Shown piece after piece: positions 1-19,020 of a stretch of DNA of 20,256 bases. The stretch comes from a virus (taxonomy: Duplodnaviria > Heunggongvirae > Uroviricota > Caudoviricetes): the IMG/VR virus record IMGVR_UViG_2671180606_000002; one strand, written 5' to 3'. The translations under genes and the position numbers were made by a program. The notes under the pieces are model-generated. The model was not told the DNA's origin, ran no database searches, and saw only the letters and a list, made by a program, of their open reading frames with translations. Numbering within the stretch: position 1 is the stretch's first letter; each line of letters starts with the position of its first letter.

Positions 1-543
1 ATGTACTCAATAAAAAAAGTAACCATGCTCTTGGGGTGCCTCGCCCTCACCTGCTCGATCGCATTTCAGGCGAGTGCAACTGAAAAATTCAAGGTCATTA
101 CAACATTTACCATCATCGCAGATATGGCCAAAAACGTGGCTGGAGATGCTGCAGAAGTCTCATCCATAACCAAGCCCGGTGCAGAAATTCATGAGTATCA
201 GCCTACCCCTGGCGATATTAAACGTGCGCAGGGGGCACAACTGATTCTCGCCAATGGTATGAATCTGGAATTGTGGTTCCAACGCTTTTACCAGCATCTT
301 AATGGGGTTCCAGAAGTAATTGTCTCTTCGGGTGTGACGCCAGTAGGGATCACTGAAGGCCCCTATGAGGGCAAACCTAACCCCCATGCCTGGATGTCGC
401 CAGATAATGCTCTGATTTACGTCGATAATATTCGTGATGCGTTGATAAAATACGATCCGGCAAATGCACAAACCTACCAACGTAATGCCGATACTTATAA
501 AGCCAAGATTGCCGTGTCTTATCTTCATCATCAACAACGATAA
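1..543 (+). pseudogene. sitA: 5-prime fragment of sitA (periplasmic Mn/Fe ABC transporter substrate-binding protein); SitA-like sequence ends near 510, then a 10-codon unrelated tail
   Basis: Translation shows signal peptide MYSIKKVTMLLGCLALTCSIAFQASA and SitA/TroA-type N-terminal block KFKVITTF..ADMAKNVAGD..ITKPGAEIHEYQPTPGDIKRAQGAQLILANG; only about 170 of an expected ~300 residues present before the frame enters prophage DNA and stops. Confidence 0.7.
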
Positions 544-635
544 AAATTTTCCCGGTATAGCCAGCACGACGCAACGTCCGGTAAGTCAGAACTTTGTCCG
601 GTCGCCCGTGAGTCAGAATAAAGGCGCAAAAATCA

Positions 636-1427
636 TCACGCATATTCCTCCTCCTCACCACCATGCATGATCTCCACCATGCGCTGCGTCATCCGGACAA
701 ATCCATTTTCAATAGCCTGCTGATAATCAATGATCACCAGCGCCGACTCCTCGAAAAAACACTGAATTTCAGAGGGGGCGTGAGCGTAATAGTCCGCAAT
801 TCTGCTGAAATTAAACACCGTGTGACGTTCTGCCGCACACAGGAGGAATTTCTCAATATCAGGCTCAAGGGACGCCGAACGTATCCGGCTGATCAGCTCC
901 TGAGTTTTCGTATCGTCGTACAGTTCACTGATATCCGGTTTACCGCCCGACGGCTCATAAACAGGCGTATCAATTTTCGTCGTATACGGCTCCTCCTCAT
1001 TTCCTGTACCGGGCAAAACATCCGTCAACAGTTCATCAATTTCTGTCGGGATGAAGCCTGTCAGGGAGACATCAAAATCAGCATTGATTAGGTCCGACAG
1101 CTCCATCCGCAACAGATCTTCATCCCAGCCAGCATTCATCGGCAGGCGATTATCTGCCAGGCGGTACGCCTTTTTCTGCTCATCCGTCAGGCCAGACAGA
1201 ACAATGACCGGAACAGAATCCATTTTGAGCATTTCAGCCGCCATAACACGACCGTGACCCGCAATAATTTCGCCCTTTTCGTCAATCAGCACCGGATTAG
1301 TCCAGCCGAATTGCTTAATACTTTCTACCAGTTGTGCCACCTGCTCAGTACTGTGCGTCCTGGCGTTGTGCGCATACGGTGACAATTCTTGTAATGGGCG
1401 ATAGACTATCTTTAATTTCTCGCTCAT
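636..1427 (-). CDS. ParB-like nuclease domain protein (full-length relative of Rac YnaK fragment)
   Basis: 263-aa ORF, ATG at 1427 with AAGG 7 nt upstream; N-terminal ParB/Srx-like block (ELSPYAHNARTHS..GWTNPVLID..IIAGHGR); sits directly downstream of trkG as ynaK does in Rac. Confidence 0.8.
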   Translation of the reverse strand: MSEKLKIVYRPLQELSPYAHNARTHSTEQVAQLVESIKQFGWTNPVLIDEKGEIIAGHGRVMAAEMLKMDSVPVIVLSGLTDEQKKAYRLADNRLPMNAGWDEDLLRMELSDLINADFDVSLTGFIPTEIDELLTDVLPGTGNEEEPYTTKIDTPVYEPSGGKPDISELYDDTKTQELISRIRSASLEPDIEKFLLCAAERHTVFNFSRIADYYAHAPSEIQCFFEESALVIIDYQQAIENGFVRMTQRMVEIMHGGEEEEYA

Positions 1428-1443
1428 ACAGCCTTGCTTTATG

Positions 1444-1478
1444 AATAAAACGCACCCCAGCAGCCAGTGCTACTGGGG
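1444..1478 (-). terminator. Rho-independent terminator candidate downstream of trkG
   Basis: Plus-strand CCCCAGCAG-CCAGTG-CTACTGGGG hairpin (1455..1478); on the minus strand it is followed by GCGTTTTATTCAT. Confidence 0.4.
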
Positions 1479-1564
1479 ACGGAGGTGTTGCTGGTAAAGT
1501 TAGGTATTGGATCAATGAGTGAGTCAACATAATATTAAACTCACAATTATAAATCAGCCATATA

Positions 1565-3022
1565 TTAGGAGCGCCAAAAAAAACCTGAAAACAATATAAT
1601 AACAGGATAAATTTCAAGGCGACCAAGAATCATAGCTATGCACATTAAGCATTTTGCAATGTCATTAAGCACTCCGAATGACGATGCAGTAGCCCCAAAA
1701 CCTAATCCCATATTATTAATACATGCAGCCACTGTTGCAAATGATGTAAGAAAATCATATCCCATACCATTTAACACCAGTATAAAAAACACCGTGAAGA
1801 GAGTATAAAGAAAAAAGAAACTCCATACAGACCTCATTACACGATCTGTAACTATCTTCCCTCCTACATTTACACTCAACAACGCTCTGGGATGAGAAAG
1901 CTGATTTATCTCGTGTTTGCTTTGTTTGAAAAGTATAAGAAATCGAAGTGACTTAATTCCACCACAAGTTGAACCTATACATCCCCCAAAGAAACTTGAC
2001 AACAGCAAAAACACTATCGTGTGCGTGGGCCAACTTGCATAATCCTGCGTAGCTAAACCATTATCAGTGAGCATGGAGCTGGCAAGAAAAAACGAATGAA
2101 TAAAACTTCCATGCAAGTCATACATACCTATATGCCAGACCTGGAAAGAGGTAACAATGATCACCCCTAAGGCTATTAACAGAAAGAAACGAAGTTCAAT
2201 ATCTCTGATTAAAGGTTTTATCGTTTTCCTGCTAATAACAATATACCAAAGAGTGAAGTTGAAAGCCGATAGCAGGGAAAAAGAACCAGCCACCAGCTCA
2301 ACCAAATAGTTATTAAAATATCCGATACTCTCGCTATGAGTTGAGAAACCACCAAGCGAAACTGTGGAAATCCCGTGACAAATAGCATCAAACAAAGGCA
2401 TTCCTGCAAGTCTATAACAGACAATACAAGCAATACCTAATAAAGAATAAGTTATCCACAGTGTCCGTGACGTATCGGCCAGGCGGGGAGTGAGTTTGTC
2501 ATCCTTAAATGGCCCCGGCATTTCTGACTGATAAAGCTTTGCACCACCAATACCCAATAATGGCAATACAGCAACCGCCAGAACAATAACTCCTAAACCA
2601 CCTATAAAATTTAACTGTGACCGATAGTACAAATATGCCCGAGGTAATGAACTAACATCATCAATTACAGTTGCTCCTGTTGTTGTTATTCCAGAAACCC
2701 CTTCAAACAGAGCATCAATGAACGTTAAATTAAGTTCTGAGTCAATCCATAAAGGGAATGCACTAATAACAGAAAACAAAATCCAAAACATTACAATTAT
2801 AATAAACCCATCACGGGTACGTAATTGAATGCCAGATTTCTTAGTTGTATACCACGCTCCGCCACCAATGCAAAAAAATATAACGAAAGTTATAAAGAAA
2901 ACAAACAGGCTTTTTTCTTTATAAAACAATGCTACAACCATTGGTGGCAACATTGAAAGACTATAGAGCCAAACCAGGAACCCACACATATGAGTAACAA
3001 CTCTTACATGAGATGTATTCAT
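1565..3022 (-). CDS. trkG: Trk-system potassium uptake protein TrkG (TrkH family)
   Basis: Multi-pass membrane protein with TrkH-type GxG pore motifs; translation from ATG at 3022 (MNTSHVRVVTHMCGFLVW...) gives 485 aa as for Rac TrkG; the six-frame ORF extends 6 codons further to a TTG at 3040; low GC relative to flanks. Confidence 0.9.
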   Translation of the reverse strand: MNTSHVRVVTHMCGFLVWLYSLSMLPPMVVALFYKEKSLFVFFITFVIFFCIGGGAWYTTKKSGIQLRTRDGFIIIVMFWILFSVISAFPLWIDSELNLTFIDALFEGVSGITTTGATVIDDVSSLPRAYLYYRSQLNFIGGLGVIVLAVAVLPLLGIGGAKLYQSEMPGPFKDDKLTPRLADTSRTLWITYSLLGIACIVCYRLAGMPLFDAICHGISTVSLGGFSTHSESIGYFNNYLVELVAGSFSLLSAFNFTLWYIVISRKTIKPLIRDIELRFFLLIALGVIIVTSFQVWHIGMYDLHGSFIHSFFLASSMLTDNGLATQDYASWPTHTIVFLLLSSFFGGCIGSTCGGIKSLRFLILFKQSKHEINQLSHPRALLSVNVGGKIVTDRVMRSVWSFFFLYTLFTVFFILVLNGMGYDFLTSFATVAACINNMGLGFGATASSFGVLNDIAKCLMCIAMILGRLEIYPVIILFSGFFWRS

Positions 3023-3159
3023 ATCTAAATATTCTTTCAATTATAACCACCTTGCTGCAATATTATGATTATACTGTATAAAATTTAACTCCTCTTAGAT
3101 CTTACTTCACTGTTCCTTATGAAACAATCATCAAAATGAATCATATTGTAGTTAAGATT

Positions 3160-3624
3160 TTACTTTAAACACTGCTCGGTTATGTATTGCTGAGCACCTT
3201 CAAGTTGGGCCTGCATCATTACCAGTCGTTCCCGGAGGGTGAAATAATCCCGTTCAGCGGTGTCTGCCAGTCGGGGGGAGGCTGCATTATCCACGCCGGA
3301 GGCGGTGGTGGCTTCACGCACTGACTGACAGACTGCTTTGATGTGCAACCGACGACGACCAGCGGCAACATCATCACGCAGAGCATCATTTTCAGCTTTC
3401 GCATCAGCTAACTCCTTCGTGTATTTTGCATCGAGCGCAGCAACATCACGCTGACGCATCTGCATCTCAGTAATTGCCGCGTTCGCCAGCTTCAGTTCTC
3501 TGGCATTTTTGTCGCGCTGTTCTTTGTAGGCGATGGCGTTATCACGGTAATGATTAACACCCCATGACAGGCAGACGACGATGCAGATAACCAGAGCGGA
3601 GATAATCGCGGTTACTCTGCTCAT
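3160..3624 (-). CDS. Spanin inner-membrane subunit Rz (i-spanin)
   Basis: 154-aa ORF nearly identical in pattern to lambda Rz ([36 protein letters not shown]); start overlaps endolysin stop (ATGA at 3621..3624). Confidence 0.9.
3219..3404 (-). CDS. Spanin outer-membrane lipoprotein Rz1 (o-spanin), embedded in Rz in the +1 frame
   Basis: 61-aa ORF with lipobox LVVVGC and proline-rich body ([29 protein letters not shown]) as in lambda Rz1; ATG at 3404; nested wholly inside Rz. Confidence 0.85.
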
Positions 3625-4097
3625 ACCTCAATCTCTCTGACCGTTCCGCCAGCTTCTTTGAATTTTGCAATCAGACTGTCAGCCTTATGCTCGAACTGAC
3701 CATAACCAGCGCCCGGCAGTGAAGCCCATATATTGCTGCAACGGTCGATAGCCTGACGGATATCACCGCGATCAATCATCGGCAAAGCGCCACGCTCTTT
3801 AATCTGCTGCAGCGCTACAGCATCCTGACTTTCTGGAGAAAAATCTTTCAGGCCAAGTTGCTTGCGGTAGGCATCCCACCAGCGTGAAAGAAGCTGGTAA
3901 CGTCCAGCGGCTGTTGATTTGAGTTTCGGATTTAGCGTGACAAGTTTGCGGGGGTGATCGGAGTAATCAGTGAACAGTTCGCCACCGACAATAACATCAT
4001 AACCGTGATTTCTGGTTTTCTGCCGTCCGTTATCTGTTCCTTCTGACCATGCCACCATATCAAGGAAAGCTTTACGCTGGGAATTAAGTGTCTGCAT
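3621..4097 (-). CDS. Endolysin, lambda R-type lytic transglycosylase
   Basis: 158-aa ORF with strong resemblance to lambda R ([47 protein letters not shown]...); ATG at 4097, 4 nt after holin stop. Confidence 0.9.
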
Positions 4098-4100
4098 TAA

Positions 4101-4442
4101 TTACTCCTTATGGGCACCGAACTTGTTACCGATGACCCTCATTGCCGCACCACGAATAGCATCAACACCAATCAGCCCCACCCCACCACCAATGGCAACA
4201 GAAAGTGATTTAGGCCATCCGACATACTCAAGCGCGGATGCAAAGGTCAGCGTCAGAGCACCACAAAGCAGAATCTCAAGCGTTTTTCGTTTCCAGCCGC
4301 CGCCACCGCCAAAATAGGCAATGCGCAAACCAGCCATAATAATTGACATAACCACTGCACCCAGCGGCGTATCTCCACGCCACCAACTTTGTAAGAGTTC
4401 CAGTAAGTCAGGCCAGGAATGAGGGGCATTGTGCATTTTCAT
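4101..4442 (-). CDS. Class I holin with dual-start (M-K-M) motif
   Basis: Three hydrophobic segments; immediately upstream of endolysin; ATG codons at 4442 and 4436 encode MKM as in lambda S107/S105; GGAGGTGA Shine-Dalgarno upstream; six-frame ORF extends to a GTG at 4451. Confidence 0.8.
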   Translation of the reverse strand: MKMHNAPHSWPDLLELLQSWWRGDTPLGAVVMSIIMAGLRIAYFGGGGGWKRKTLEILLCGALTLTFASALEYVGWPKSLSVAIGGGVGLIGVDAIRGAAMRVIGNKFGAHKE

Positions 4443-4535
4443 AAGCCTCACCTCCGAGAGTTCGGATGGTGCTAAGTGTAAGATTCAGGCTCTCAGGCTT
4501 GCTAACAAGAAGTCGAGGATGTTTCCGGAGCCTAA

Positions 4536-4564
4536 CAACGAAAAAGCCCCGGGACATGCCGGGG
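4536..4564 (-). terminator. Rho-independent terminator between the moron gene and the holin gene
   Basis: GC hairpin CCCCGG-GACATG-CCGGGG (4547..4564); on the minus strand it is followed by CTTTTTCGTTGTT. Confidence 0.5.
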
Positions 4565-4659
4565 TCAGATGGAGTGCCAGATTAAGCTTCTGGCGGTATA
4601 TACTCGTGTTTGATATCGTTAAATCGCCAAAAGTAACAATTCAAACAAAGAGGATTTTT

Positions 4660-4821
4660 ATGTCTGAAAAAAACAAGCCACAAGATGAAAATAAACCTCA
4701 GCAACCCGTGGCACCAAAACCAACTCCAACACAAAGTACTACAGACTTTGCTACACGTCGTGTTTTTGTTGGAGATTCTGCCGACTCAGTCATTGAACAT
4801 ATAAAAAAACAGCCGAGATAA
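4660..4821 (+). CDS. Hypothetical small protein (53 aa, Pro/Gln-rich N-terminus), convergent with and overlapping the 3-prime end of the moron gene
   Basis: ATG at 4660 preceded by AAAGAGGA at good spacing; hydrophilic low-complexity product MSEKNKPQDENKPQQPVAPKPTPTQS...; no homology recognised, could be spurious. Confidence 0.3.
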   Translation: MSEKNKPQDENKPQQPVAPKPTPTQSTTDFATRRVFVGDSADSVIEHIKKQPR

Positions 4822-5359
4822 ACATCGCCGCTACCGGAGCAAGGATGGTATACATCCTTGCTTTATCGAGACTCGTGCGGATTTTCTCATTTTCCAACAG
4901 TAACTCTCTTGCTGTATCACTCAAGTCAACAAGGCGATACCTTCGTATAAGCGGCAATAACTTATCAGGTCCTAAATATCCTGCATCAGCGAATATTTTA
5001 AAGCTCGAGGGCTCCATATCCTTATATTTTTCATGATATAGATGATCAGGAGGGGCATTGATCAGGCCCCTAACCTTCACAGATAAACCAGTACATACCA
5101 AGTAAATGGCGCACCATGTCCATAGTAATGTAAATGTGGTAATTCCGGCGGTGAGAAAATCGAAATTAGTTTTCTGTGTCAGCAATAAAAAAGATGAACC
5201 AATTCCAACAATCTGAATGTTCAGAAGTTTGTATCCATTCTCAACATTGGTTTTGTTAGAAAGATGAATCTCTCGTATCGTCTCTTCCCCTTGTTTTTCA
5301 AGATAATCGACGAGCTCATCATCTACTCCTAAAAAATAATCTTTAGGTAGTTCTCTCAT
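4790..5359 (-). CDS. Membrane protein of unknown function in the Q-to-holin moron slot
   Basis: 189-aa ORF, ATG at 5359 with GGAGGTGA Shine-Dalgarno; at least two central transmembrane segments plus a hydrophobic C-terminus; low GC; bracketed by terminator hairpins at 5465..5497 and 4536..4564. Confidence 0.75.
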   Translation of the reverse strand: MRELPKDYFLGVDDELVDYLEKQGEETIREIHLSNKTNVENGYKLLNIQIVGIGSSFLLLTQKTNFDFLTAGITTFTLLWTWCAIYLVCTGLSVKVRGLINAPPDHLYHEKYKDMEPSSFKIFADAGYLGPDKLLPLIRRYRLVDLSDTARELLLENEKIRTSLDKARMYTILAPVAAMFISAVFLYVQ

Positions 5360-5380
5360 CTCACCTCCACATCCTGTACT

Positions 5381-5400
5381 GAAAACAATTTTACCAGAAT
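5381..5400 (-). promoter_or_regulatory. Candidate extended -10 promoter (TGGTAAAAT) for the moron gene
   Basis: Minus-strand TGGTAAAAT at 5396..5388, about 30 nt upstream of the ATG at 5359 and downstream of the tR-prime-like terminator; no good -35, so weak call. Confidence 0.3.
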
Positions 5401-5464
5401 GTCTCGATTCTAGGTATTCCGCCAGGAATCGCGCTCCAGAAATGAAACATCAGGTTCGCCAGTA

Positions 5465-5497
5465 CCAGAAACAACAAAACCCGCTCAATGGCGGGTT
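5465..5497 (-). terminator. Rho-independent terminator downstream of the Q-like gene (tR-prime-like position)
   Basis: Minus-strand ACCCGC-CATTGA-GCGGGT hairpin followed by TTTGTTGTTT; lies between the Q-like gene and the lysis region as lambda tR-prime does. Confidence 0.55.
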
Positions 5498-5580
5498 CTG
5501 GTAAAGTTCATGCGCTTGGTTCGCCTCGCGATACAGCTTTGCGAAGCATACCGGAATTGAAGCAGTTTATGCGTAAAAAA

Positions 5581-6123
5581 TCAAGCTATTTTTTGAGCAA
5601 ATGATTCTCGCATGGGAATATATAGGGCATACTCAGCAACAGCCAACCAATTAGCAATTCGCTTTTCGCATGTGCTAAAACACCACTCAGGATGTGCATC
5701 ATTTAGCAATTCAGCCATTTTGCGCTTAGTCATCCCCCGTCCTTCATACCGTTGCCGGAGGACACTAATCAATCCAGGATGCTCTGCCAGCACCTCACTT
5801 ATGACTCTATCAATACATAACGCCTCTGCATCAGTACAATGCGCCAGCCAGGTCTTTTGCTTGCCATTGATCATCTCTCGCAAAAACGCTTCCAGCTCAG
5901 GTTTCTCTATTCCCGCTTTTTTCATCCTGCGCAGGGCTTCATTGACGGCTGTTTTCGTCAATTTTTTGGATGCCAGCAACTGGTTAAACATATTTCCCGT
6001 CTTACCGCCGCCAATATACGACCAGCGCCCCCACATGCGCAGTTTTCCCTGAATCCAGACACTTTCCAGCGTGGTGAGACGAAGGTGTTCCCCGCTTTTG
6101 CCTGTATTTGTTGGGTAAATCAT
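5581..6123 (-). CDS. Putative late-gene antiterminator (Q-like), assigned mainly by position
   Basis: 180-aa product from ATG at 6123 (MIYPTNTGKSGEHL...), GAAAGGAAGG Shine-Dalgarno, start overlaps upstream stop (ATGA); Cys/His-containing C-terminus; last gene before the terminator and lysis cassette; family not confirmed. Confidence 0.55.
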   Translation of the reverse strand: MIYPTNTGKSGEHLRLTTLESVWIQGKLRMWGRWSYIGGGKTGNMFNQLLASKKLTKTAVNEALRRMKKAGIEKPELEAFLREMINGKQKTWLAHCTDAEALCIDRVISEVLAEHPGLISVLRQRYEGRGMTKRKMAELLNDAHPEWCFSTCEKRIANWLAVAEYALYIPMRESFAQKIA

Positions 6124-6410
6124 AAATAACCTTCCTTTCTCCAGATTTCTTGTGTGCGAAAAACACCTTCTGCATGCATCAGGCGTAATTCTTCTTTGGT
6201 GTAATCGCTGGTTTTTACCCGCCCGTCGATTAAATCGTGGCATGAGCTACAGGCAATCGCTGCCTGCATATCGTGTGGTTTTGTCGCTGTTCCGCACGTC
6301 CCCGCCAGCCTGTAATGCGCCAGCACAGAGGTTTCGGGATTGTGATTGCAGTAGCCAGGGATTCTGATCTGGCACATCTGGCCTTTAGCCGCTTTACGTA
6401 AATTCACCAT
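6120..6410 (-). CDS. YbcO-like phage protein (DUF1364, putative nuclease)
   Basis: 96-aa ORF with Cys-rich pattern LRKAAKGQMCQIRIPGYCNHNPETSVLAHYRL..GTATKPHD..ACSSCHD resembling DLP12 YbcO; translationally coupled on both sides. Confidence 0.8.
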   Translation of the reverse strand: MVNLRKAAKGQMCQIRIPGYCNHNPETSVLAHYRLAGTCGTATKPHDMQAAIACSSCHDLIDGRVKTSDYTKEELRLMHAEGVFRTQEIWRKEGYL

Positions 6411-7009
6411 TACGCAAACTCCAGTAGTTGTGCGGCCACATTTTCAACTTCCTCCTGAGAGGAGAATTTACGGAACAGAATCCAGTTCCACAGCACATTC
6501 AGAACAGATTTATAAACCTGCTGAAACTCGGTTTCGTCCATATTCGCAAACGCGATGGATTTCGCCCTGCGCCCACGGCTACCGTCCGGATAAATATGCT
6601 CGGTGTAAAATCCGGCCTGAATGGTTACCCACTCGCGGAAAGCCTCAAACGACTTTAGCAATGCCGTATCCCGAGTTCTGCGTGTCGCAACTGTATTTAG
6701 ATATTGCTCTGCGGCATCACTCAGGGCTGGTGTGTGTTCCCGACCAACTGATTCGCACAAGTAATCCACGAAACCAGACAGCAGTTCTCGTTCGCGAGGT
6801 GTGATCGCCCCACCGACCGGAGTCCAGTAATCGAATCCCAGTTGCAGGAGTTTGAAAAAACGCTTGTGGAATGCGTAGTTACGCACACGCTTAAAGTCTG
6901 CGTGTATCCACTCACCTATTTTGATTTGATGCAGAAAATCGCAACTCTCCGGCGTCGCCGGGAGAAGTAAACCAGAAGAGGTTTGTTTGACCAGTTGTAT
7001 ATGCGCCAT
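6410..7009 (-). CDS. Phage nin-region protein, DUF1367-like
   Basis: 199-aa ORF with ATG at 7009; one-nucleotide start/stop overlap with the YbcO-like gene; family assignment from memory of the conserved N-terminal LVKxxSGLLLPATPE block. Confidence 0.65.
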   Translation of the reverse strand: MAHIQLVKQTSSGLLLPATPESCDFLHQIKIGEWIHADFKRVRNYAFHKRFFKLLQLGFDYWTPVGGAITPRERELLSGFVDYLCESVGREHTPALSDAAEQYLNTVATRRTRDTALLKSFEAFREWVTIQAGFYTEHIYPDGSRGRRAKSIAFANMDETEFQQVYKSVLNVLWNWILFRKFSSQEEVENVAAQLLEFA

Positions 7010-7289
7010 TTCTCAATCTCTCGATGGCGCAGCGCAGCAGATGCCAGTTGTTCAGGCTGACGAATAAAGTATAAATAAACTGGCTATGGTGTAAAGCCCC
7101 ACATAGCATGAACAAACACTACATATCAAATAGCTGGTACAAGGATAGAAATACGACATTTATTATTAAAAACGATTAGATAAATTACATTTTAATGTTA
7201 TGCAAAAGTTCTTTTTTATCATAACATTTCAATAAAAGCATTACAGATGCAATCATCCCGTCATCATCAATTATTTAAGGTGGTTAAAC

Positions 7290-7376
7290 ATGGAAAATAA
7301 CAAGTTCGCACATCTCGCTCCTTTTTTATCCGTAATCCTTTTCGCTTGTTGTTTTATATGGGCATTATTTTTATAA
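7290..7376 (+). CDS. Candidate small hydrophobic peptide (28 aa) in the AT-rich spacer
   Basis: ATG at 7290 preceded by AAGGTGG; product MENNKFAHLAPFLSVILFACCFIWALFL has a charged N-terminus and one predicted transmembrane helix, the shape of small membrane proteins or type I toxins; no homology recognised. Confidence 0.3.
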   Translation: MENNKFAHLAPFLSVILFACCFIWALFL

Positions 7377-7450
7377 AGTAGCCACATGATAAGTTGCTGG
7401 AATCATATTTCCCACTCAAGTCATTAACATTTGATAAGATATATCTAAAA

Positions 7451-7509
7451 GGACACCTTTACATTATTTATGTGTATATAATTTATTTATATACACAGTA
7501 AAGGTATCC
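7451..7509. repeat. Long imperfect palindrome with a perfect 10-bp core inverted repeat (TGTGTATATA-N7-TATATACACA)
   Basis: Core arms at 7471..7480 and 7488..7497 are exact reverse complements; outer arms GGACACCTTTAC (7451..7462) and GTAAAGGTATCC (7498..7509) pair with one mismatch. Confidence 0.6.
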
Positions 7510-7776
7510 TGGGAAAATATTTATCGTTAAAAAATACATCATAAATAATTAAGCTGAAATTTCAGAACACAACTAATACACACAATAAGGTTCAGTAACA
7601 ATAATCTATGTGGACTACATCGAGATTTTTTGATTAAACTTTAATAACTTATTCCTAACACACAGAATGCATAAACTAAAAGTAAAACAAATAGTTATAC
7701 GAAAAACAACCATATTTATTATATCTTCTCCTCTAATCAACATATCAATTATGTGTTTCATAACAGCTTGACATAA

Positions 7777-7815
7777 CCCTCAAAAACACGCATTTATAAT
7801 GCATGTTTTTGAGGG
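7777..7815. promoter_or_regulatory. NsrR-box-like palindrome over the -10 and ribosome-binding region of the yeaR-like gene
   Basis: 17-bp inverted arms CCCTCAAAAACACGCAT / ATGCATGTTTTTGAGGG (one mismatch) around TTATA; core AACACGCATTT-A-TAATGCATGTT (7785..7807) matches my recalled 11-1-11 NsrR consensus with about 2 mismatches; TATAAT at 7795..7800; TTGACA at 7768..7773 is 21 bp upstream. Confidence 0.45.
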
Positions 7816-7822
7816 GGTGGTT

Positions 7823-8161
7823 ATGACACACAAGAGAATTCCTAAAGATTGGGTAATCAAACGCTCAACTCCGTTCTTCACAAAAGAGAACGTACCTTCA
7901 GCGTTATTAACACATCATAATACAGCAGCAGGTGTTTTTGGGCAGTTGTGCGTAATGGAAGGCACTGTAACATATTATGGTTTTACTGATGAGAATGCTA
8001 CTGAACCGGAGATAAAAGTAGTCATTAATGCTGGCGCTTTTGCAACAAGCCCACCACAATACTGGCACCGTGTTGAACTAAGCGATGATGCTCAGTTTAA
8101 TATTAACTTTTGGGTCGCTCCAGACTTCTCGGGCGAAAAAGTCTATAGCACCAAAAAATAG
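7823..8161 (+). CDS. YeaR-like protein (DUF1971, TehB N-terminal-like domain)
   Basis: 112-aa product from ATG at 7823 (GAGGGGGTGG Shine-Dalgarno); conserved blocks RSTPFF..P......H.T..G....L.V..G.V.Y.G..DE...EP.......AG.FA..PP..WH.......D..FNI.F.VAP align by eye to E. coli YeaR. Confidence 0.8.
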   Translation: MTHKRIPKDWVIKRSTPFFTKENVPSALLTHHNTAAGVFGQLCVMEGTVTYYGFTDENATEPEIKVVINAGAFATSPPQYWHRVELSDDAQFNINFWVAPDFSGEKVYSTKK

Positions 8162-8190
8162 ATGATCATATTAAAAATGCTTTAACAGTC

Positions 8191-8228
8191 AGACCCGGCA
8201 GGGCTATCCCCGACGGGTCTCATTTTTG
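8191..8228 (+). terminator. Rho-independent terminator after the yeaR-like gene
   Basis: AGACCCG...CGGGTCT hairpin (8191..8220) followed by CATTTTTG, 30 nt after the stop codon. Confidence 0.55.
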
Positions 8229-8923
8229 TAAATATATTGGTTCTACATTGACAGGAGACTTCAACCATAAGAAGTAATCTGAATACTTGAGCAATAAATT
8301 TACTTAAGATTAATGAGCGCACCTTGCCGGACAAAGATAAACCAAGGTAACACCTTTTTTCTAGCCAGTATGTAATCAATCAGAAAGCCGCTCCATAAGA
8401 ACAACAGCAAGACAATAAATTGCCATTACAGCCGCAATAGCCAGCGCACATTTGAGAACCAGCACGACAACCCCCTGTATTAGACGCACACCAGTCCTGA
8501 TAAATATGAGGCTGTCTCGTCAGTGATTCAATACAACTATTGGGTATAGTTTCTGTGATTTTATTCTGTAGAAATGGAACACAACAACCAGTCACCACCA
8601 GCACTTCTTTAAATACGCCAAGTCCGACGCAAGCTAACCTTCTAGTCCGCTTTGAGCGAAAAGCGGACAGGAACATTCTGGTTAATAGATATCAATGCTA
8701 ACAAAAAAGCTCCCGATGGAGATTTTGAAACCGCTTCCACATAATGAAATAAAAGGATTTATTTCTGGTCATGCCCACACATTGACCACGTCGAAGTAAG
8801 TAGCTCCGCTTCGCGGAGTTACTTAAGATAATTTCTATGTAGTTCCATGCTATGATTTAATTTTCAAGTTACAAAATCTAAATCTACAAATGTCCATTTG
8901 GGTGTAAAATTACACAATCCTAT

Positions 8924-11297
<2,374 letters not shown>

Positions 11298-11369
11298 AGG
11301 ATTAATCCAAAATAAAGACCTTGTTGACTAAACCCTCATGTACAAAATGCACACTTACTCAAAAGGATC

Positions 11370-11390
11370 TGGAGGCAATCTCGACCTCCA
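11370..11390. promoter_or_regulatory. Perfect inverted repeat TGGAGG-N9-CCTCCA in the divergent intergenic region between the deaminase gene and the TetR-like gene
   Basis: Exact 6-bp arms with 9-bp spacer; positioned like an operator in a divergent regulator/operon arrangement; function not established. Confidence 0.3.
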
Positions 11391-11550
11391 TGATTTAGTT
11401 CCTAGGGATAAGCAGAAATCTAGCACTGGATTAAAATTTAAAAATAATAATCAATAGGTTATAATGGTTTTTATTCGCATCCATGGGATCTGCTGCTGCC
11501 CGCATGATGTTGGATGCGACGGCGCTGGCACGACCTCACCCGGTGAAACG

Positions 11551-11996
11551 ATGAAACGCGAAAGGGTTGTTCTTCGGGAAGGTGCAGTTGGACTTTCAAT
11601 CGATGACGTTGCAAAAGAGGCTGGCGTCAGTAAGGCAACGGTAATGTACGATCATAAGTCAAAGCAAGATTTGCTCAGCGATCTCATCAGTCGCCTTATG
11701 CCAGTAGAGGAGGAACGTGTTCAGCAAGCGATAGCGGAAAGTAATAATACCCCCACATCCCGCACTCTATGGGCGAATTATTTCAGCCAGTAATGCTCTC
11801 AGTCATACTGAGAGAGCAGTAGTGCTGGCGGTCAGCGAATCGTTAACTAACGATACGAATATCAGGGACACCATGCGTTCCTGCACAAACAAAGATTTGG
11901 ATGAGATAAAAAGAGGACCAAAACCAGACGTTGCCGTCCTGGTATATTTGGCGTTATCTGGTATCTACTGCCAAGAATTTTTTGATTTTTACAAAT
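11551..11996 (+). pseudogene. TetR-family transcriptional regulator, disrupted by frameshift (N-terminal HTH 11551..11793; C-terminal remainder continues in +1 frame to about 11996)
   Basis: N-terminal frame has a TetR-type HTH (LSIDDVAKEAGVSKATVMYDHKSKQDLL) and stops after 80 aa; the next frame continues ALSHTERAVVLAVSESLTNDT...LVYLALSGIYCQEFFDFYK without its own start; TATAAT at 11460..11465 upstream. Confidence 0.55.
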
Positions 11997-12271
11997 GATC
12001 TCCTGGCGAGCGAGATAAAATTATCGAAGGCATTCGCTGTTTGTATGAATCATACCCTTACAAGTCTGAATAAATAATGTCTCCGGGAATGACATTTCAT
12101 GTGCGACTAATTCGCGATATTCCTATACGTAAAGGTCCGCTTTTGGCACAAAGTGGACAACCACGCTAGCTCTACCCTGTGCCACAAAATGTCAATTTGC
12201 ATCTGAACTAATGCACTTTAATCTCGTCACTTCAATAAATACCGAACATCCCCCTGATAAAACGACAATAT

Positions 12272-12649
12272 TCACTGCATAACTTCACTCTTCAGGCACT
12301 CGCGACAGATTATGTTCAGACGCCTGTCGTAACGGCGTATTTCTCCGTCTGGTAATGACCAGATAAGGTCAGGATCAACCACAACCGGTTTCTTCACCTT
12401 TGTCCTTGATAGTTTTTTGCGGGCGTTTTGCCAGTCTTTACGCGCCTGCTCAGACGGGAATAATCCGTAGCCTGAATTGTAAACATCACCACTGGCGACT
12501 AGTTCTCTGGCGAGAGTGCTTATGTAATACCTTGATGCACCGGTTTTAGCCTCCAGAGCCCGTAACGTCTCGCGACCGCTCAGAGGTACAAGTTCAACAA
12601 CCTGTCCTTTAATTTTTTCTCGCTCTTCTGGTGTAAATACTTTTGCCAT
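12272..12649 (-). CDS. Hypothetical phage protein (125 aa)
   Basis: ATG at 12649 with GGAGG 7 nt upstream (MAKVFTPEEREK...); six-frame ORF extends to a TTG at 12664; basic C-terminal part; no family recognised. Confidence 0.6.
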   Translation of the reverse strand: MAKVFTPEEREKIKGQVVELVPLSGRETLRALEAKTGASRYYISTLARELVASGDVYNSGYGLFPSEQARKDWQNARKKLSRTKVKKPVVVDPDLIWSLPDGEIRRYDRRLNIICRECLKSEVMQ

Positions 12650-12664
12650 AGGTGCCTCCGGCAA

Positions 12665-13426
12665 TCACTTTTCCGATGCAACATGGCGGGAAGAATCAGT
12701 AATCTGTCGTACAATATCCCTGTGCTTGTTCAACTCACGCAGCGCGGCGCAGACACGCTCCCACTTCTGGACATGATTTTTCGCCCGACGCAGTTCGCGG
12801 TTTGCCATATGCAGTGATGGTAAAACCAGGTCATCCGCTCGCGTTTCAGTAAACGATGGCAGCGACTGCACAATGTCCGCCACAGTTTCTGTTTTAATAT
12901 CTTCCTGTGTTGCAGCCTCCTGTACTGGTAACGCAACACCTGCGGTCTGAGGAAAGGCCTTACCATCAGTTTCCGCTACCGATGCTGCTTTCGGCTCTGC
13001 TGGTAAATTATCGCCCGGTATGCAGTAACGAAATTTACCGCCCTGATTTACGCGAATCAGACGACCTTTGCTGATTGCCATTGCCAGCGTTGAAGCCACT
13101 TTGCGTGATGTGGTACCAAACAATGTAGCCAGCTCATCAGCCGTTTGTGGTCCTCGTTGTTCAATCGTCGCGGTTAAATCGCACTCTGAGATTTTCGCTA
13201 CTGTTGCTGTGGTGATTTCTTCCGGCAGTTCTGCCTGCGCTGGCTGTTCCTGCTGAACATTGTTATCAGCCACACGCCAGGTGTACGCGCTTTTATCAAC
13301 AAAACCAGCCTTTTTCAGTTCCCATAGTTCGTTCAGCACTTCTTCACGACTGATATCAAGTCGCGCAGCAAGTTCTATGGATGTGGCTTTTCCCATTGCT
13401 TTCAGTGCGTCAAAAACAGTCTCCAT
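12665..13426 (-). CDS. Phage protein with N-terminal winged-helix-like domain (possibly the full-length counterpart of Rac pseudogene YdaW)
   Basis: Start chosen at ATG 13426 ([43 protein letters not shown]...) with GGGAGA upstream; the longer ORF to 13477 would overlap the DnaC-like gene by 29 nt; acidic/Ala-Thr-rich linker. Confidence 0.65.
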
Positions 13427-13448
13427 TAAATTTTTCTCCCGGTAAAAA

Positions 13449-14195
13449 TTACTTCGCAATTCCTGGCTGGACGACATTCGGACGCCAGCTCTCCCAGTTA
13501 AAATTCACCCATCGCCCGCCGTTCATGGTCATGCGATCCATAATCCGCTCGCCGAGCAATGTTTTCATGGCCTCATAGTTCAGGTTTGTCAGCATCCCCA
13601 CGCTGCGCATCGACGCTGTCCGGCGATCAACAATCTGGTGCAGTACCACCTGCTCGTTTTTCGTCTCGCGCTGAATGCCAATTTCATCAAGAACCAGCAG
13701 ATCCACTTCGCACAGTTCCCGCAAAAATTTTTCGCCTGACTGCCCATCGTCATAGCTGGCGTGCAGGGCACTCATAACATCAGCCACGGTAACCACAATC
13801 ACTGTCTGACCGTCTTTCAGCAGGCGATTCCCGATAGCTGCCGCTAAGTGGTTCTTCCCGGTACCAGGTTTTCCGCTGAACGCAAAATTTGTACACCCGG
13901 TCATCAGTTCATCAGCGATGGATTTCGCCTGACTCAACGCGTATCGCTGCCCTTCGTTCTGCACCTGGTAATTCGAAAACGAGCATTTGCGGTGCAATGG
14001 CTGGATGCCAGAGCGATTCAGAATTTTTTCCACCCGCAACTGACGATTCTGACGGTTGATCTCCTCACAACGTTTCTGGCCTTCGGAAAGTTGCCACTCG
14101 CGCCACTCCGCTACCGTCTTGAATGGCGCGGTTACATGTGACGGGGCCAGTCTGCGGATACGTTCAAGAACATCGCCTGTCGCAATATTTTTCAT
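13449..14195 (-). CDS. ydaV: DnaC/IstB-like AAA+ helicase-loader (replication protein, YdaV-like)
   Basis: 248-aa ORF with Walker [16 protein letters not shown] and Walker [10 protein letters not shown]; ATG at 14195; follows the initiator-like gene as in lambdoid O-P modules. Confidence 0.9.
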
Positions 14196-14201
14196 GGTCA
14201 G

Positions 14202-15059
14202 TTACCCCCTGAAGCCTGGCGGGATCGCACTATCCGGTAACGAGACGGTGTTAACCTGTCGGAGTAACGTCTCAGGTCGAACACCTTTCGGCGCGAACAA
14301 GCCCTGGTATTCATTGGCGATGCTGTGTCGAATCACCTGCTCAGGTGAAAAACCCTGCTGGCGGAATTTTTCCAGCTCCCGTATCGCCCCGTTAGCGCCC
14401 TGCTCCGTTCGAATCGGTTTTCGCAATGCCTGGCGAAATTCAACCCACTCACGCCAAAGCGAGACAGAAATCCAGTTCGGCAAAGTAATATCCAGAGGGT
14501 CAAACTTTTTGACACCTCGATTCCCCCGGGGGGGATTTAGGGGGGGATCTGTTTTTAGATCTTTATCTGTATCTTTATTAGTTGCCTTTGTGTTGACATC
14601 ATGTTCAAACACCACTTCAACATCTGTTTGAACACCTGTTAAATTTCTCTCTTGTTTTGTTTGAACATCTGCTTCCTTTCTGCTTCTTCTGGCCTGAACA
14701 GATGCTTTTCCTGCGGCTGATTTTTTGGTTAATTTTTCCCTGACTGATGCCAGATCTTCCTCAATCCGAAGATGCACCCATTCCTCGCCGTTATCGCAAA
14801 AAAACTCCTGCAAGGATGGTTCAACATCAGCCCATCGCTCGTTAGTCAGACGGGCAATTTTTGCCAGCCTGTTTTTAGGTATTGGCTTTCCTGTTTGCCA
14901 GTAATTGAACATCAGCAACAAATACGCACCATGCTCCTCTGCTGACAAATGCATGGTGTCAGCCAGGTAATCAGCTATGTACAGTTGCATGTATGGTAAT
15001 GCGGCCATAATTGCCCCGTATGATGCTGCCCGGTGGCTTAGAATAAGCACAAACAGCAT
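14202..15059 (-). CDS. ydaU: Phage replication initiation/organiser protein (YdaU-like, DUF1376)
   Basis: 285-aa ORF, same length as recalled Rac YdaU; N-terminal YLADTMHLSAEEHGAYLLLMFNYW block; central charged KDTDKDLK repeat region encoded by iteron-like DNA. Confidence 0.8.
   Translation of the reverse strand: MLFVLILSHRAASYGAIMAALPYMQLYIADYLADTMHLSAEEHGAYLLLMFNYWQTGKPIPKNRLAKIARLTNERWADVEPSLQEFFCDNGEEWVHLRIEEDLASVREKLTKKSAAGKASVQARRSRKEADVQTKQERNLTGVQTDVEVVFEHDVNTKATNKDTDKDLKTDPPLNPPRGNRGVKKFDPLDITLPNWISVSLWREWVEFRQALRKPIRTEQGANGAIRELEKFRQQGFSPEQVIRHSIANEYQGLFAPKGVRPETLLRQVNTVSLPDSAIPPGFRG
14595..14709. repeat. Cluster of four iteron-like elements (core TGTT[C/T][A/G]AACA / CATCTG) inside the ydaU-like gene; candidate replication origin
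   Basis: ACATCATGTTCAAACACC, AACATCTGTTTGAACACC, TGTTTGAACATCTGC and CTGAACAGATGC within about 115 bp, next to AT-rich sequence; analogous to the lambda ori iterons inside gene O. Confidence 0.4.
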
Positions 15060-15071
15060 GGAAACTTTTGC

Positions 15072-15377
15072 TTAATGAACAATGACAGAATCGTCGGAAG
15101 AACCGCCGCCGCTGAAATGCGCTTTCCGGTAAACGGCTTGGACTGCATCATCATGCGCATCAATTGCCGTACTTAACGCTTCCTGCGCCGCCAGTAATGC
15201 ACGGCGTTCCAGGGTATCGAAGATGCAGAGTCGGTGACGCAGCTCGCGCGGAAGGATTGCCAGAATTGCTGGGATCAGCTTCTGAATTTTTTCTCTTTGC
15301 GTTTTCGTTTCACCTTTCAACCAACGGTGATAGATATTCTGCTGATTGTTCCAGTCCTTGCCTGGAACCAGGGGCAA
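15072..15377 (-). pseudogene. YdaT-like C-terminal fragment lacking an ATG start (only TTG at 15377)
   Basis: 101-aa frame with no internal Met, predicted helical C-terminus; sits immediately upstream of ydaU-like where Rac has ydaT (recalled as 140 aa); the expected upstream Cro-like and repressor genes are absent. Confidence 0.4.
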
Positions 15378-15480
15378 TTCGCCGCCCCCCTGGCGCAGAT
15401 ATTCTTCAGTAATTGCATTGGCTACCCATGCCTGCCCTTTTTCGGCTGCTAGGGCACCCGGCGTTAAGGGGAGAGATAAG

Positions 15481-15615
15481 ATGGTGCATTACGAAGTAGT
15501 TCAGTATTTGATGGATTGTTGCGGTATCACTTACAACCAGGCTGTGCAGGCTTTACGCAGCAACGACTGGGATCTCTGGCAGGCAGAAGTCGCTATACGT
15601 AGCAACAAGATGTGA
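15481..15615 (+). CDS. ydaG: Small Rac-type early-left protein (YdaG-like, 44 aa)
   Basis: ATG at 15481 with AAGGGGAGAG Shine-Dalgarno; product MVHYEVVQYLMDCCGITYNQAVQALRSNDWDLWQAEVAIRSNKM; size and position match Rac ydaG. Confidence 0.6.
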   Translation: MVHYEVVQYLMDCCGITYNQAVQALRSNDWDLWQAEVAIRSNKM

Positions 15616-15625
15616 GATTCGCAAA

Positions 15626-15781
15626 ATGCAAAAAATCGACCTCGGCAACAACGAATCCCTGGTGTGCGGCGTGTTCCCCAACCAGGATGGAACGTTCACT
15701 GCCATGACGTATACCAAAAGCAAAACATTTAAAACCGAAACTGGTGCGCGCCGATGGTTGGAGAAGCACACAGTAAGCTAA
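15626..15781 (+). CDS. ydaF: Small Rac-type early-left protein (YdaF/YdfA-like, 51 aa)
   Basis: ATG at 15626, 51-aa product MQKIDLGNNESLVCGVFPNQDGTFTAMTYTKSKTF...; 3-prime end overlaps sieB stop convergently by 4 nt; size and position match Rac ydaF. Confidence 0.6.
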   Translation: MQKIDLGNNESLVCGVFPNQDGTFTAMTYTKSKTFKTETGARRWLEKHTVS

Positions 15782-16266
15782 CGATTAAAACGTCTACTCC
15801 TGCTGTTCCAGAATAACTTCATAAAATGGGAGTATTTTTCGGTGACGAGATAATAAGAACAGTTTGCGCTATCACTCTGATGTTGAATGATGCCCTTCCG
15901 TTCTAATTTTTTCATAACCGGGTTACGGCAAGGAGAAGTGATAATAAGATTTCCTGTTTTAAGGAAATCTTTAAATACAGCGATTTCTTTCTCAGATAAA
16001 CGAAGCAATACTCGTTGCTCTGGTAGTAATGAATAATGCTTTTGAATATGTGCTCGCAATCTTGAGAAGGAAATGGCGACCACGAAAGAAAAGGCAAAAA
16101 CGATAATCTGAAAGAGCCAAGGTATTTCAGTATAAGCATTGAATGCGACAGTAAACTCTTTCGGTATCAGCCAGAGAGTGAGACCAAAAATGATAATCGT
16201 ATACATAAGTCTTTCGAGTGGCTCGTTAGCAAAAAGTTTCAACAATGGAGTAAATACATCCAACAT
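15778..16266 (-). CDS. sieB: Superinfection exclusion protein B
   Basis: 162-aa membrane protein from ATG at 16266 (MLDVFTPLLKLFANEPLERLMYTIIIFGLTLWLIPKEF...); opposite orientation to neighbours as in Rac and lambda; the six-frame ORF has a 41-codon upstream extension lacking support. Confidence 0.85.
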   Translation of the reverse strand: MLDVFTPLLKLFANEPLERLMYTIIIFGLTLWLIPKEFTVAFNAYTEIPWLFQIIVFAFSFVVAISFSRLRAHIQKHYSLLPEQRVLLRLSEKEIAVFKDFLKTGNLIITSPCRNPVMKKLERKGIIQHQSDSANCSYYLVTEKYSHFMKLFWNSRSRRFNR

Positions 16267-16484
16267 ATCAATAACTCTCAACTGTAAGGGTATTGAAATG
16301 TTAACACAAGCTCTCGCTGTAGGGGTATAGCCGAGACCACCGAAGCCCGGAGGTGGTGAAATAAAACCGGGCACAACACGAAGGCGCATTTCCGATATCC
16401 ATAAAGAGTCGGTCTTGTCTGTTAAATTTAAATGGTGGGAGTGCGCCTCCGGTTGTAAATAACGACATTGCTGTGTGTAGTCCT

Positions 16485-16532
16485 GGCGGCATCAGTTTTT
16501 TTCTTGAAGTTCGGCTGATGTCCGCCCTTTTT
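16485..16532 (+). terminator. Intrinsic-terminator-like hairpin upstream of kilR (early-left operon, tL-like)
   Basis: GGCGGCATCAG ... CTGATGTCCGCC imperfect inverted repeat followed by CTTTTTAAAG on the plus strand. Confidence 0.4.
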
Positions 16533-16707
16533 AAAGTGAATTTTGTGATGCGGTGAATGCGGCTAAGCGCACGTGGCACAGTTAAAAGTCATGTTAGTCC
16601 TTATTGGTTTGGGTGGGAAAGCCGACTGTAATTGTTAACTGGTTGCAGTCACCTGGAGGCACCAGACACCGCATCAACAAAGTTCATTTGTAAAAATGGA
16701 GATAATT

Positions 16708-16929
16708 ATGATTGCACATCACTTCGGAACTGATGAAATACCACGTCAGTGTGTGACTCCTGGCGATTATGTTCTTCATGAAGGCCGGACATATATTGCC
16801 TCGGCAAACAATATTAAAAAGCGAAAACTATATATTCGTAACCTGACCACAAAAACATTCATTACTGACCGCATGATTAAAGTCTTCCTCGGTCGTGATG
16901 GTTTACCTGTAAAGGCGGAGTCATGGTGA
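16708..16929 (+). CDS. kilR: Cell-division inhibitor KilR (FtsZ inhibitor)
   Basis: 73-aa product [32 protein letters not shown]... from ATG at 16708 with GGAG upstream; matches Rac KilR in length and sequence as recalled. Confidence 0.85.
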
Positions 16930-17099
16930 TGACTAAGAAAATAAAATGTGCTTACCACCTTTGCAAAAAAGACGTTGAAGAAAGCAAAGCTATTGAAAGA
17001 ATGCTTCACTTCATGCACGGGATTTTATCAAAAGACGAACCGAGAAAATATTGCAGTGAAGCTTGTGCCGAAAAAGACCAGATGGCACATGAACTTTAA
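16929..17099 (+). CDS. ydaE: Rac prophage small Cys-rich protein YdaE
   Basis: 56-aa product [56 protein letters not shown]; ATG overlaps kilR stop (TGATG); not in the six-frame track because under 60 aa. Confidence 0.7.
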   Translation: MTKKIKCAYHLCKKDVEESKAIERMLHFMHGILSKDEPRKYCSEACAEKDQMAHEL

Positions 17100-17173
17100 T
17101 TAATTGACTATTCGAAACTGAATTTATGCCAGAAATGGCAGGTATTCGCTCAACCTTAATTAAGGAGAAAAAC

Positions 17174-17449
17174 ATGATTACCAATTATGAAGCCACTGTT
17201 GTAACTACCGATGACATTGTTCACGAGGTGAATCTGGAAGGAAAGCGCATTGGCTACGTAATTAAAACAGAAAATAAAGAAACCCCATTCACTGTGGTTG
17301 ATATCGATGGTCCATCAGGCAACGTAAAAACACTTGATGAAGGTGTCAAAAAAATGTGCCTGGTGCATATCGGAAAGAATCTGCCCGCAGAAAAAAAAGC
17401 CGAATTTCTGGCAACTCTAATTGCAATGAAATTAAAAGGTGAAATCTGA
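17174..17449 (+). CDS. racC: Rac prophage protein RacC
   Basis: 91-aa product from ATG at 17174 with AAGGAG Shine-Dalgarno (MITNYEATVVTTDDIVHEVNLEGKR...). Confidence 0.8.
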   Translation: MITNYEATVVTTDDIVHEVNLEGKRIGYVIKTENKETPFTVVDIDGPSGNVKTLDEGVKKMCLVHIGKNLPAEKKAEFLATLIAMKLKGEI

Positions 17450-17550
17450 AAGAAATAGCCTGCGTATGGCGCAGGCTATGAACAGTGTGTATCCGGCAAG
17501 ATCATTCACTGAACAAAACGAATTTTAATCTGAGTTGAGGTTAAAAAACA

Positions 17551-18000
17551 ATGAGCACAAAACCACTCTTCCTGTTACGGAAAGCGAAAAAATCATCCGG
17601 TGAACCTGACGTCGTCCTGTGGGCAAGCAACGATTTTGAATCGACCTGTGCCACTCTGGACTACCTGATCGTTAAGTCAGGTAAAAAACTGAGCAGCTAT
17701 TTTAAAGCTGTTGCCACGAATTTTCCTGTCGTTAATGACCTGCCCGCTGAAGGTGAGATCGATTTTACCTGGAGTGAACGCTATCAACTCAGCAAAGACT
17801 CCATGACATGGGAACTAAAACCGGGAGCAGCACCAGACAACGCTCACTATCAAGGCAATACCAACGTCAACGGCGAAGACATGACTGAGATTGAGGAGAA
17901 TATGCTACTCCCAATTTCTGGCCAGGAACTGCCCATTCGTTGGCTTGCTCAACACGGCAGCGAAAAACCGGTACCCACGTCTATGCTGTCGCAAGACTGA
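17551..18000 (+). pseudogene. recE: recE (exonuclease VIII) N-terminal remnant, about 141 native codons then out-of-frame tail
   Basis: Translation begins [46 protein letters not shown], the RecE N-terminus as recalled, and ends after [10 protein letters not shown]; RecE should be over 800 aa. Confidence 0.85.
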
Positions 18001-18272
18001 AAGACGGAGGTACTCAGTTTGAAGTTATGACGCGCAAACAGATTGAGCTGGTGCGCAGCCTGAGTAAAGCTGGTAATAACGGGCCGTGGGTAACTCACTG
18101 GGAAGAAATGGCAAAGAAAACGGCTATTCGTCGCCTGTTCAAATATCTGCCCGTATCAATTGAGATCCAGCGTGCAGTATCAATGGATGAAAAGGAACCA
18201 CTGACAATCGATCCTGCAGATTCCTCTGTATTAACCGGGGAATACAGTGTAATCGATAATTCAGAGGAATAA
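17974..18272 (+). pseudogene. recT: recT C-terminal remnant (about 98 codons) fused out of frame to the recE fragment
   Basis: +1 frame reads [66 protein letters not shown]...VIDNSEE, the RecT C-terminus as recalled; no RecT N-terminal 170 residues anywhere in window. Confidence 0.85.
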
Positions 18273-18328
18273 TTCAGCCTGGCGGTGTAATGCACCGCCA
18301 ACTTGAAATATTTTTTATGAGAAAAATT

Positions 18329-18523
18329 ATGAGATATGACAATGTTAAACCATGTCCATTTTGTGGTTGTCCATCAGTAACGGTGAAAGCCATTTCAGGA
18401 TATTACCGAGCGAAGTGTAACGGATGCGAATCCCGAACCGGTTATGGTGGAAGTGAAAAAGAAGCACTCGAAAGATGGAATAAACGAACCACTGGAAATA
18501 ATAATGGAGGTGTTCATGTATAA
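18329..18523 (+). CDS. ralR: Restriction alleviation protein RalR (Lar-like)
   Basis: 64-aa Cys-rich product MRYDNVKPCPFCGCPSVTVKAISGYYRAKCNGCESRTGYGG...; start chosen at ATG 18329 to match RalR length. Confidence 0.8.
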   Translation: MRYDNVKPCPFCGCPSVTVKAISGYYRAKCNGCESRTGYGGSEKEALERWNKRTTGNNNGGVHV

Positions 18524-18725
18524 AATTACCGCCACTATTGAAAAGGAAGGTGGCACTCCTACTAACTGGACAAGATATTCAAAATCTAAACTAACGAAAT
18601 CAGAATGCGAAAAAATGCTCTCAGGTAAAAAAGAAGCAGGCGTTTCCAGAGAGCAGAAAGTAAAACTGATAAATTTTAATTGCGAGAAACTTCAGTCCTC
18701 GAGAATTGCATTGTATTCAAATTAA
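18516..18725 (+). CDS. ydaC: Rac prophage protein YdaC
   Basis: 69-aa product from ATG at 18516 with GGAGGTG Shine-Dalgarno (MYKITATIEKEGGTPTNWTRYSK...); overlaps ralR stop. Confidence 0.75.
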   Translation: MYKITATIEKEGGTPTNWTRYSKSKLTKSECEKMLSGKKEAGVSREQKVKLINFNCEKLQSSRIALYSN

Positions 18726-18803
18726 AACTTCATAGCTGATTATTAATAATCAACATCGGGCGTCAATTTCAGTCTAACATTGGCGCCTGCCAGAGGTGAT
18801 GCG

Positions 18804-19019
18804 ATGGCACAAGTAATCTTTAATGAAGAGTGGATGGTTGAATACGGCCTGATGCTTCGCACTGGTCTGGGGGCCAGACAAATTGAAGCATACCGCCAGA
18901 ACTGTTGGGTGGAGGGCTTCCACTTCAAACGAGTATCTCCTTTAGGTAAGCCAGACAGCAAACGAGGGATTATCTGGTACAACTATCCAAAGATAAATCA
19001 GTTTATCAAAGACTCATGA
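18804..19019 (+). CDS. xisR: Excisionase (Xis)
   Basis: 71-aa product from ATG at 18804 with GAGGTGA Shine-Dalgarno ([32 protein letters not shown]...); immediately upstream of int. Confidence 0.8.
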
Positions 19020-19020
19020 T

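Follow-up and report, generated by a model that had tools for sequence, protein, structure and literature searches.

The 20,256-nt stretch of phage DNA analysed here (the window) very probably carries, at position 510/511, a genuine deletion scar of about 28.7 kb that lies inside a Rac-type lambdoid prophage and joins the 5' part of sitA to the start of a phage gene, as judged from sequence comparison. The deletion is routine prophage decay parallel to that of the Rac prophage of Escherichia coli K-12, an ordinary and well-understood event that is precisely mapped here, and its significance beyond annotation is small. For annotation, the locus should be scored as a defective prophage, a Rac-like cryptic remnant, with sitA as a pseudogene and the sit Mn/Fe uptake operon as absent from the locus.

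Position of the junction and the truncated genes

The junction between sitA and phage DNA was fixed to one base by a base-by-base comparison with E. coli MS15047, whose sitA shows no mismatch to the window up to the junction; on the phage side, the sole mismatch within positions 510-3000 is position 1670. The two registers lie in MS15047 in the same orientation, colinear and 28,708 bp apart. In a three-line alignment of the window against both reference registers, T510 is the only base at which the parental sequences overlap at the break (1 bp). No homology beyond this base was found at the breakpoints, the 40 bp on each side of each parental breakpoint matching one another at chance level. 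A GAT shared at the breakpoints was considered as homology and rejected, as it is one base out of register and unable to give the observed AAGATTGCC. In a megablast search of positions 1-1500 against 5,426 complete E. coli genomes, the sitA matches stop at 510-513 and the phage matches begin at 507-510; the sitA and ynaK parts stand side by side in a single one of these genomes (E. coli E300010). The overlap of 1 bp and the chance-level match around the breakpoints therefore argue for a deletion that was independent of homology.

In MS15047, the gene order is trkG, ynaK, a 933-bp gene, a small ORF, the genes for the small and large terminase subunits, portal, head and tail genes, J, lom, stfR, tfaR, sitD, sitC, sitB, sitA, uspF, ompN, and nifJ. 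Measured against this order, the deletion took away sitBCD completely, together with 23 annotated genes for virion proteins and terminase; of the genes at its ends, sitA lost 405 nt at its 3' side, and the 933-bp gene, which codes for a TET-associated glycosyltransferase (TAGT), lost 800 nt. The genes at both breakpoints are cut in comparison with their full-length homologues (SitA 170 of 304 amino acids, TAGT 44 of 310). The features at and near the junction are listed in Table 1.

The first-pass annotation, which was made from the window sequence alone, had placed a deletion junction in this region because a SitA-like match stopped at about 510. This assignment holds: the match ends exactly at 510, where the phage match starts, and the junction is explained by one colinear deletion of 28,708 bp in comparison with MS15047, which is identical to the window on each side. 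The predicted loss of the 3' part of sitA, of sitBCD, and of all structural genes beyond the ParB-like gene agrees with the gene order of MS15047. The alignment that had been proposed, with an intact sitABCD locus and a Rac-type prophage, mapped both breakpoints in MS15047, and the microhomology that was to be sought there amounts to 1 bp only. Two descriptions have to be amended. The distance from the junction to the stop codon of the ParB-like gene, given as 95 bp, is actually 125 bp (511-635), the figure of 95 fitting the distance from the stop codon of the chimeric ORF. The DNA in between, described as unrelated, is a coding remnant, namely the 5'-terminal 133 nt of TAGT.

Table 1 Features at and near the deletion junction (window coordinates unless stated otherwise)
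Feature	Coordinates	Strand	Basis or remark
sitA, 5' 510 nt (170 codons)	1..510	+	0 mismatches vs MS15047 sitA; ZnuA profile 1-142/263
Chimeric ORF, 180 aa	1..543	+	ORF list; SitA 1-170 plus 10 foreign residues, TAA 541-543
Deletion junction	510..511		Alignment vs both MS15047 registers; 28,708 bp deleted
TAGT remnant, first 44 codons plus 1 nt (133 nt)	511..643	-	Residues 1-44 of WP_001204028.1, then divergence at junction
14-bp repeat, copy 1, CCGGTAAGTCAGAA	578..591	+	Minus strand encodes VLTYR of TAGT; unchanged in intact reference
14-bp repeat, copy 2, CCCGTGAGTCAGAA	605..618	+	Minus strand encodes ILTHG of TAGT; unchanged in intact reference
ynaK-type ParB/Srx N-terminal-domain gene, intact, 263 aa	636..1427	-	ORF; Pfam ParB_N; identical to MS15047 WP_001291105.1 region
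trkG, K+ transporter cargo gene	1565..3040	-	ORF; trkG annotation in colinear references
43-bp att-like repeat	L003 (MS15047) 32893-33430; L004 5588-5630		Between uspF and sitA

Of the periplasmic Mn/Fe-binding protein, the sitA remnant still encodes the signal peptide and the N-terminal lobe. The Pfam ZnuA domain is covered from position 1 to 142 of 263 in the 180-residue chimera versus 1 to 262 in the intact 304-residue SitA, which means that about half of the domain, at its C-terminal end, is missing. Cluster A-I binding proteins have four metal ligands, two of which would presumably fall in this missing half. The truncated gene (sitA') is predicted to be a non-functional pseudogene, and Sit-dependent uptake of Mn and Fe would have been lost from the locus. 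The ten residues that follow the SitA part of the chimera (AVSYLHHQQR) are an antisense reading of the TAGT remnant.

The translation of this remnant, MRDDFCAFILTHGRPDKVLTYRTLRRAGYTGKIFIVVDDEDKTR, is the same as that of the MS15047 protein up to the junction and diverges exactly there. Its ATG (643-641) overlaps by 8 nt the stop codon of ynaK, which is the complete phage gene nearest to the junction. The intact protein (310 amino acids, Pfam PF20691, E=3.4e-35) bears the RefSeq name 'GREB1-related' under WP_001204028.1. In the intact phage, in which the TAGT gene occupies L003 3337-4269, the overlapping pair of ynaK and TAGT is situated just upstream of the genes for terminase, and the pair could have a function in DNA modification or one linked to packaging. 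A TET/JBP gene was not noticed near TAGT. Beyond ynaK lies trkG, which is typical of Rac prophages and anchors the identification of the element; the lysis genes come next.

The prophage and its sit cargo

Apart from positions 1-509, the window is about 100% identical to the ttcA-integrated Rac-type prophage of MS15047, and positions 510-20256 are colinear with it save for two deletions, at 99.9-100% identity. Hallmarks of the Rac type are present, with intR-xisR at the ttcA side, an early region composed of recE/recT-racC-kilR-sieB, and trkG-ynaK after the lysis genes. The ttcA gene itself is located just beyond the edge of the window, and the gene of the immunity repressor RacR is absent from it. 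The intact element would have consisted, in this order, of an att site, sitABCD, tail fibre and tail genes, head genes, terminase genes, TAGT, ynaK, trkG, lysis genes, early genes, xisR-intR, and the second att site at ttcA.

The limits of the element are indicated by a 43-bp att-like repeat, the two copies of which are 93% identical in MS15047. One is situated next to intR/ttcA and the other between uspF and sitA, about 370-413 bp upstream of the sitA start codon; the uspF-side copy is unchanged upstream of sitA' in public contigs that bear the junction. The position between uspF and sitA places sitABCD inside the prophage, as terminal cargo far from the integrase gene, and the deletion is thus wholly internal to the element. 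A fusion of host and phage DNA, as which the junction had first been interpreted, is ruled out by the same repeat. No att core was found at the 510 junction, which does not correspond to the product of an att x att excision. Because sitABCD is a cargo of the Rac-type prophage in this E. coli lineage, the sit genes and the phage late genes were lost together. As predicted from its gene content, the remnant may still excise, both att copies and the int/xis genes being kept, and it would never be able to form particles.

A sitABCD island is also known as 'PAI sit' from Shigella flexneri and E. coli. In a review, it is described as unstable, with many rearrangements and deletions that arise mainly by homologous recombination, and as occurring at the other insertion sites aspS and yecN (PMC7545054, citing Fisher et al. 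2009). In the window element, which has the same sitABCD cargo, the island is instead the distal arm of a Rac-type prophage inserted at ttcA, and the deletion appears independent of homology.

Origin of the scar

The exact 180-residue chimeric protein is encoded on at least five Logan contigs from at least three runs (ERR14748845, ERR11813479, and ERR14748738), whose DNA agrees with the window without a difference for as many as 3,268 bases, counted from the sitA start codon. All junction-bearing Logan contigs have nifJ-ompN-uspF upstream. An artefact of assembly, in which a chimeric or mis-joined contig would have created the junction, had been named at the outset as a possible explanation, and it might seem to be favoured by the fact that the identical scar is absent from the 5,426 complete E. 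coli genomes, the GTDB species representatives, and the JGI metagenome contigs. However, the occurrence of the same junction in independently assembled contigs from separate runs, in the correct chromosomal context, argues against it, and the joined sequences share no repeat able to mislead an assembler. We therefore regard an artefact as extremely improbable.

Every junction-carrying short-read contig breaks within the Rz/lysis genes (window about 3270-3590), presumably because this cassette is repeated among the lambdoid prophages of the same genomes. As a consequence, no single public short-read contig links the junction to the two other deletions of this prophage copy, which are described below.

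Codon 170 of sitA is joined to codon 45 of TAGT, in convergent orientation, very probably by a homology-independent ('illegitimate') deletion inside a Rac-type lambdoid prophage at ttcA. In view of the overlap of only 1 bp, the route may have been replication slippage or, following a double-strand break, end joining with little microhomology. Recombination functions of the phage may have contributed, as the prophage encodes recE/recT, which are damaged here by another deletion. The two 14-bp direct repeats noted near the junction in the first-pass annotation exist as described, but the role in the deletion that had been suspected for them does not stand. They are identical at 12 of 14 positions (CCGGTAAGTCAGAA and CCCGTGAGTCAGAA) and are 27 bp apart. 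Pairs with at least 12 of 14 matches and a spacing of 14-60 bp are rarer in shuffled sequence, the window containing 10 versus 2.2 in mononucleotide shuffles, and about 0.07 pairs of such quality are expected per 135 bp of window sequence; a figure of none in 100 shuffles is circular, since the pattern had been derived from both copies themselves. A deletion driven by such repeats, through slipped-strand or short-homology recombination, requires one parental copy at each breakpoint and leaves a single copy, whereas neither copy is missing here. The repeats are found on the phage side of the scar, at distances of 68 and 95 bp, and their spacing is that of the undeleted phage, since the window matches the reference from 510 onward. 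Moreover, alignment revealed no similar sequence at the sitA-side breakpoint, and the repeats represent codons within one gene. The pair is mildly unusual but not compelling, a mild coincidence of coding sequence, and we give almost no credence to its having mediated the deletion.

The comparison with the reference suggests that the scar probably arose in a single step. Two or more successive deletions, or insertion of an IS element followed by an adjacent deletion and loss of the IS, would be conceivable since nested deletions leave an identical scar, since the same prophage copy has two further private deletions, and since two separate deletions in the late region of the K-12 Rac prophage demonstrate that serial deletion does occur in this element. 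This course of events is nevertheless unlikely. Neither an IS element nor a terminal inverted repeat was found at the junction, which contains no foreign bases, every base of positions 1-3000 being assigned to either the sitA or the phage reference; and as one reference agrees fully with both flanks in order and in sequence, a single event is the most economical explanation.

A different matter is a two-part reading that we consider very unlikely: that loss of the block was selected rather than neutral, and that the sitA promoter could drive Fe/Mn-dependent antisense transcription of prophage genes. The first part is based on the loss of nearly the same 28.4-28.7 kb in two independent lineages (the window and E300010), both of which kept trkG and the lysis genes, and on the additional loss of racR-ydaS-ydaT' and recE-recT from the window copy, which has about five point differences from the intact phage. 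As for the second part, the fusion aims the metal-regulated sitA promoter convergently into ynaK-trkG, and no terminator-like site was found on the + strand between 510 and 1158. A promoter and terminator scan of positions 1-1700 gave consensus-level matches only, at or near the expectation from shuffled sequence, and supports no functional claim.

Related deletion derivatives and further changes in this copy

The Rac prophage of K-12 belongs to the same phage type, is integrated at the same site (ttcA), and shares about 99.9% identity with MS15047 in the common parts. Like the window element, it is a deletion derivative without head and terminase genes; a breakpoint within its ynaK is 664 bp away from the window junction. 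Its gene order is intR ... recET ... racR ... trkG-ynaK-ydaY-tmpR-lomR-stfR-tfaR. Whereas the window lost a single 28,708-bp block from TAGT to sitA and has an intact ynaK, K-12 lost 11,560 bp between the interior of ynaK and the 5' end of ydaY, as well as about 8.45 kb between the tape measure gene and lom, kept the tail-fibre genes, and is without an adjacent sit operon.

In E. coli E300010 (NZ_CM128601.1), nearly the same block was lost independently through a deletion of 28,389 bp, which led to the order uspF-sitA-ynaK'-trkG. The breakpoints differ, however, being located at codon 17 of sitB and 1-2 nt before the start codon of TAGT (L001 8966-8972), with the result that sitA is intact and the stop codon of ynaK is lost. 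The flanks in E300010 are about 98% identical to MS15047, which points to a separate lineage and a separate event. The deletions of K-12 Rac and E300010 show the usual decay route of this phage type. In other genomes covered by the megablast search of the 5,426 sequences, the ynaK matches end at window positions 892, 1197, or 1432; the query was conditioned on sitA and ynaK, so that these end points are no measure of a hot spot at the ynaK-TAGT boundary.

Over 19.7 kb, the window differs from MS15047 by about five substitutions, one 1-nt indel, and two further deletions. The deletion at 15455/15456 comprises 1,241 bp, has a 2-bp overlap, and removed ydaS and racR entirely, along with the first 38 nt of ydaT. 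In K-12, loss of racR is reported to be tolerated only if the ydaS/ydaT toxins are lost as well, which fits this deletion. The deletion at 17972/17973 comprises 2,681 bp, has an exact 2-bp overlap within an imperfect direct repeat (12 of 14 positions; CCGGTAACGCACGT and CCGGTTACCCACGT), and joins codon 141 of recE to the interior of recT, giving an ORF at 17551-18000. Neither junction was present in any of the complete E. coli genomes; a 137-kb Logan contig from SRR11849210 carries the two together. With three deletions versus about five substitutions relative to an intact relative, the element is a clean example of rapid prophage decay.

A near-coincident yet different recE-recT deletion was observed in E. 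coli PSS-07 (H68). At window position 11750, an extra C relative to MS15047 is located within the ORF of a TetR/AcrR-type regulator (11464-11793, + strand), which comprises 109 amino acids versus 148 in MS15047. The regulator gene adjoins a cluster of adenosine deaminase, NTP pyrophosphatase, and SIR2-family genes (8924-11297, minus strand), which resembles a defence or cargo module.
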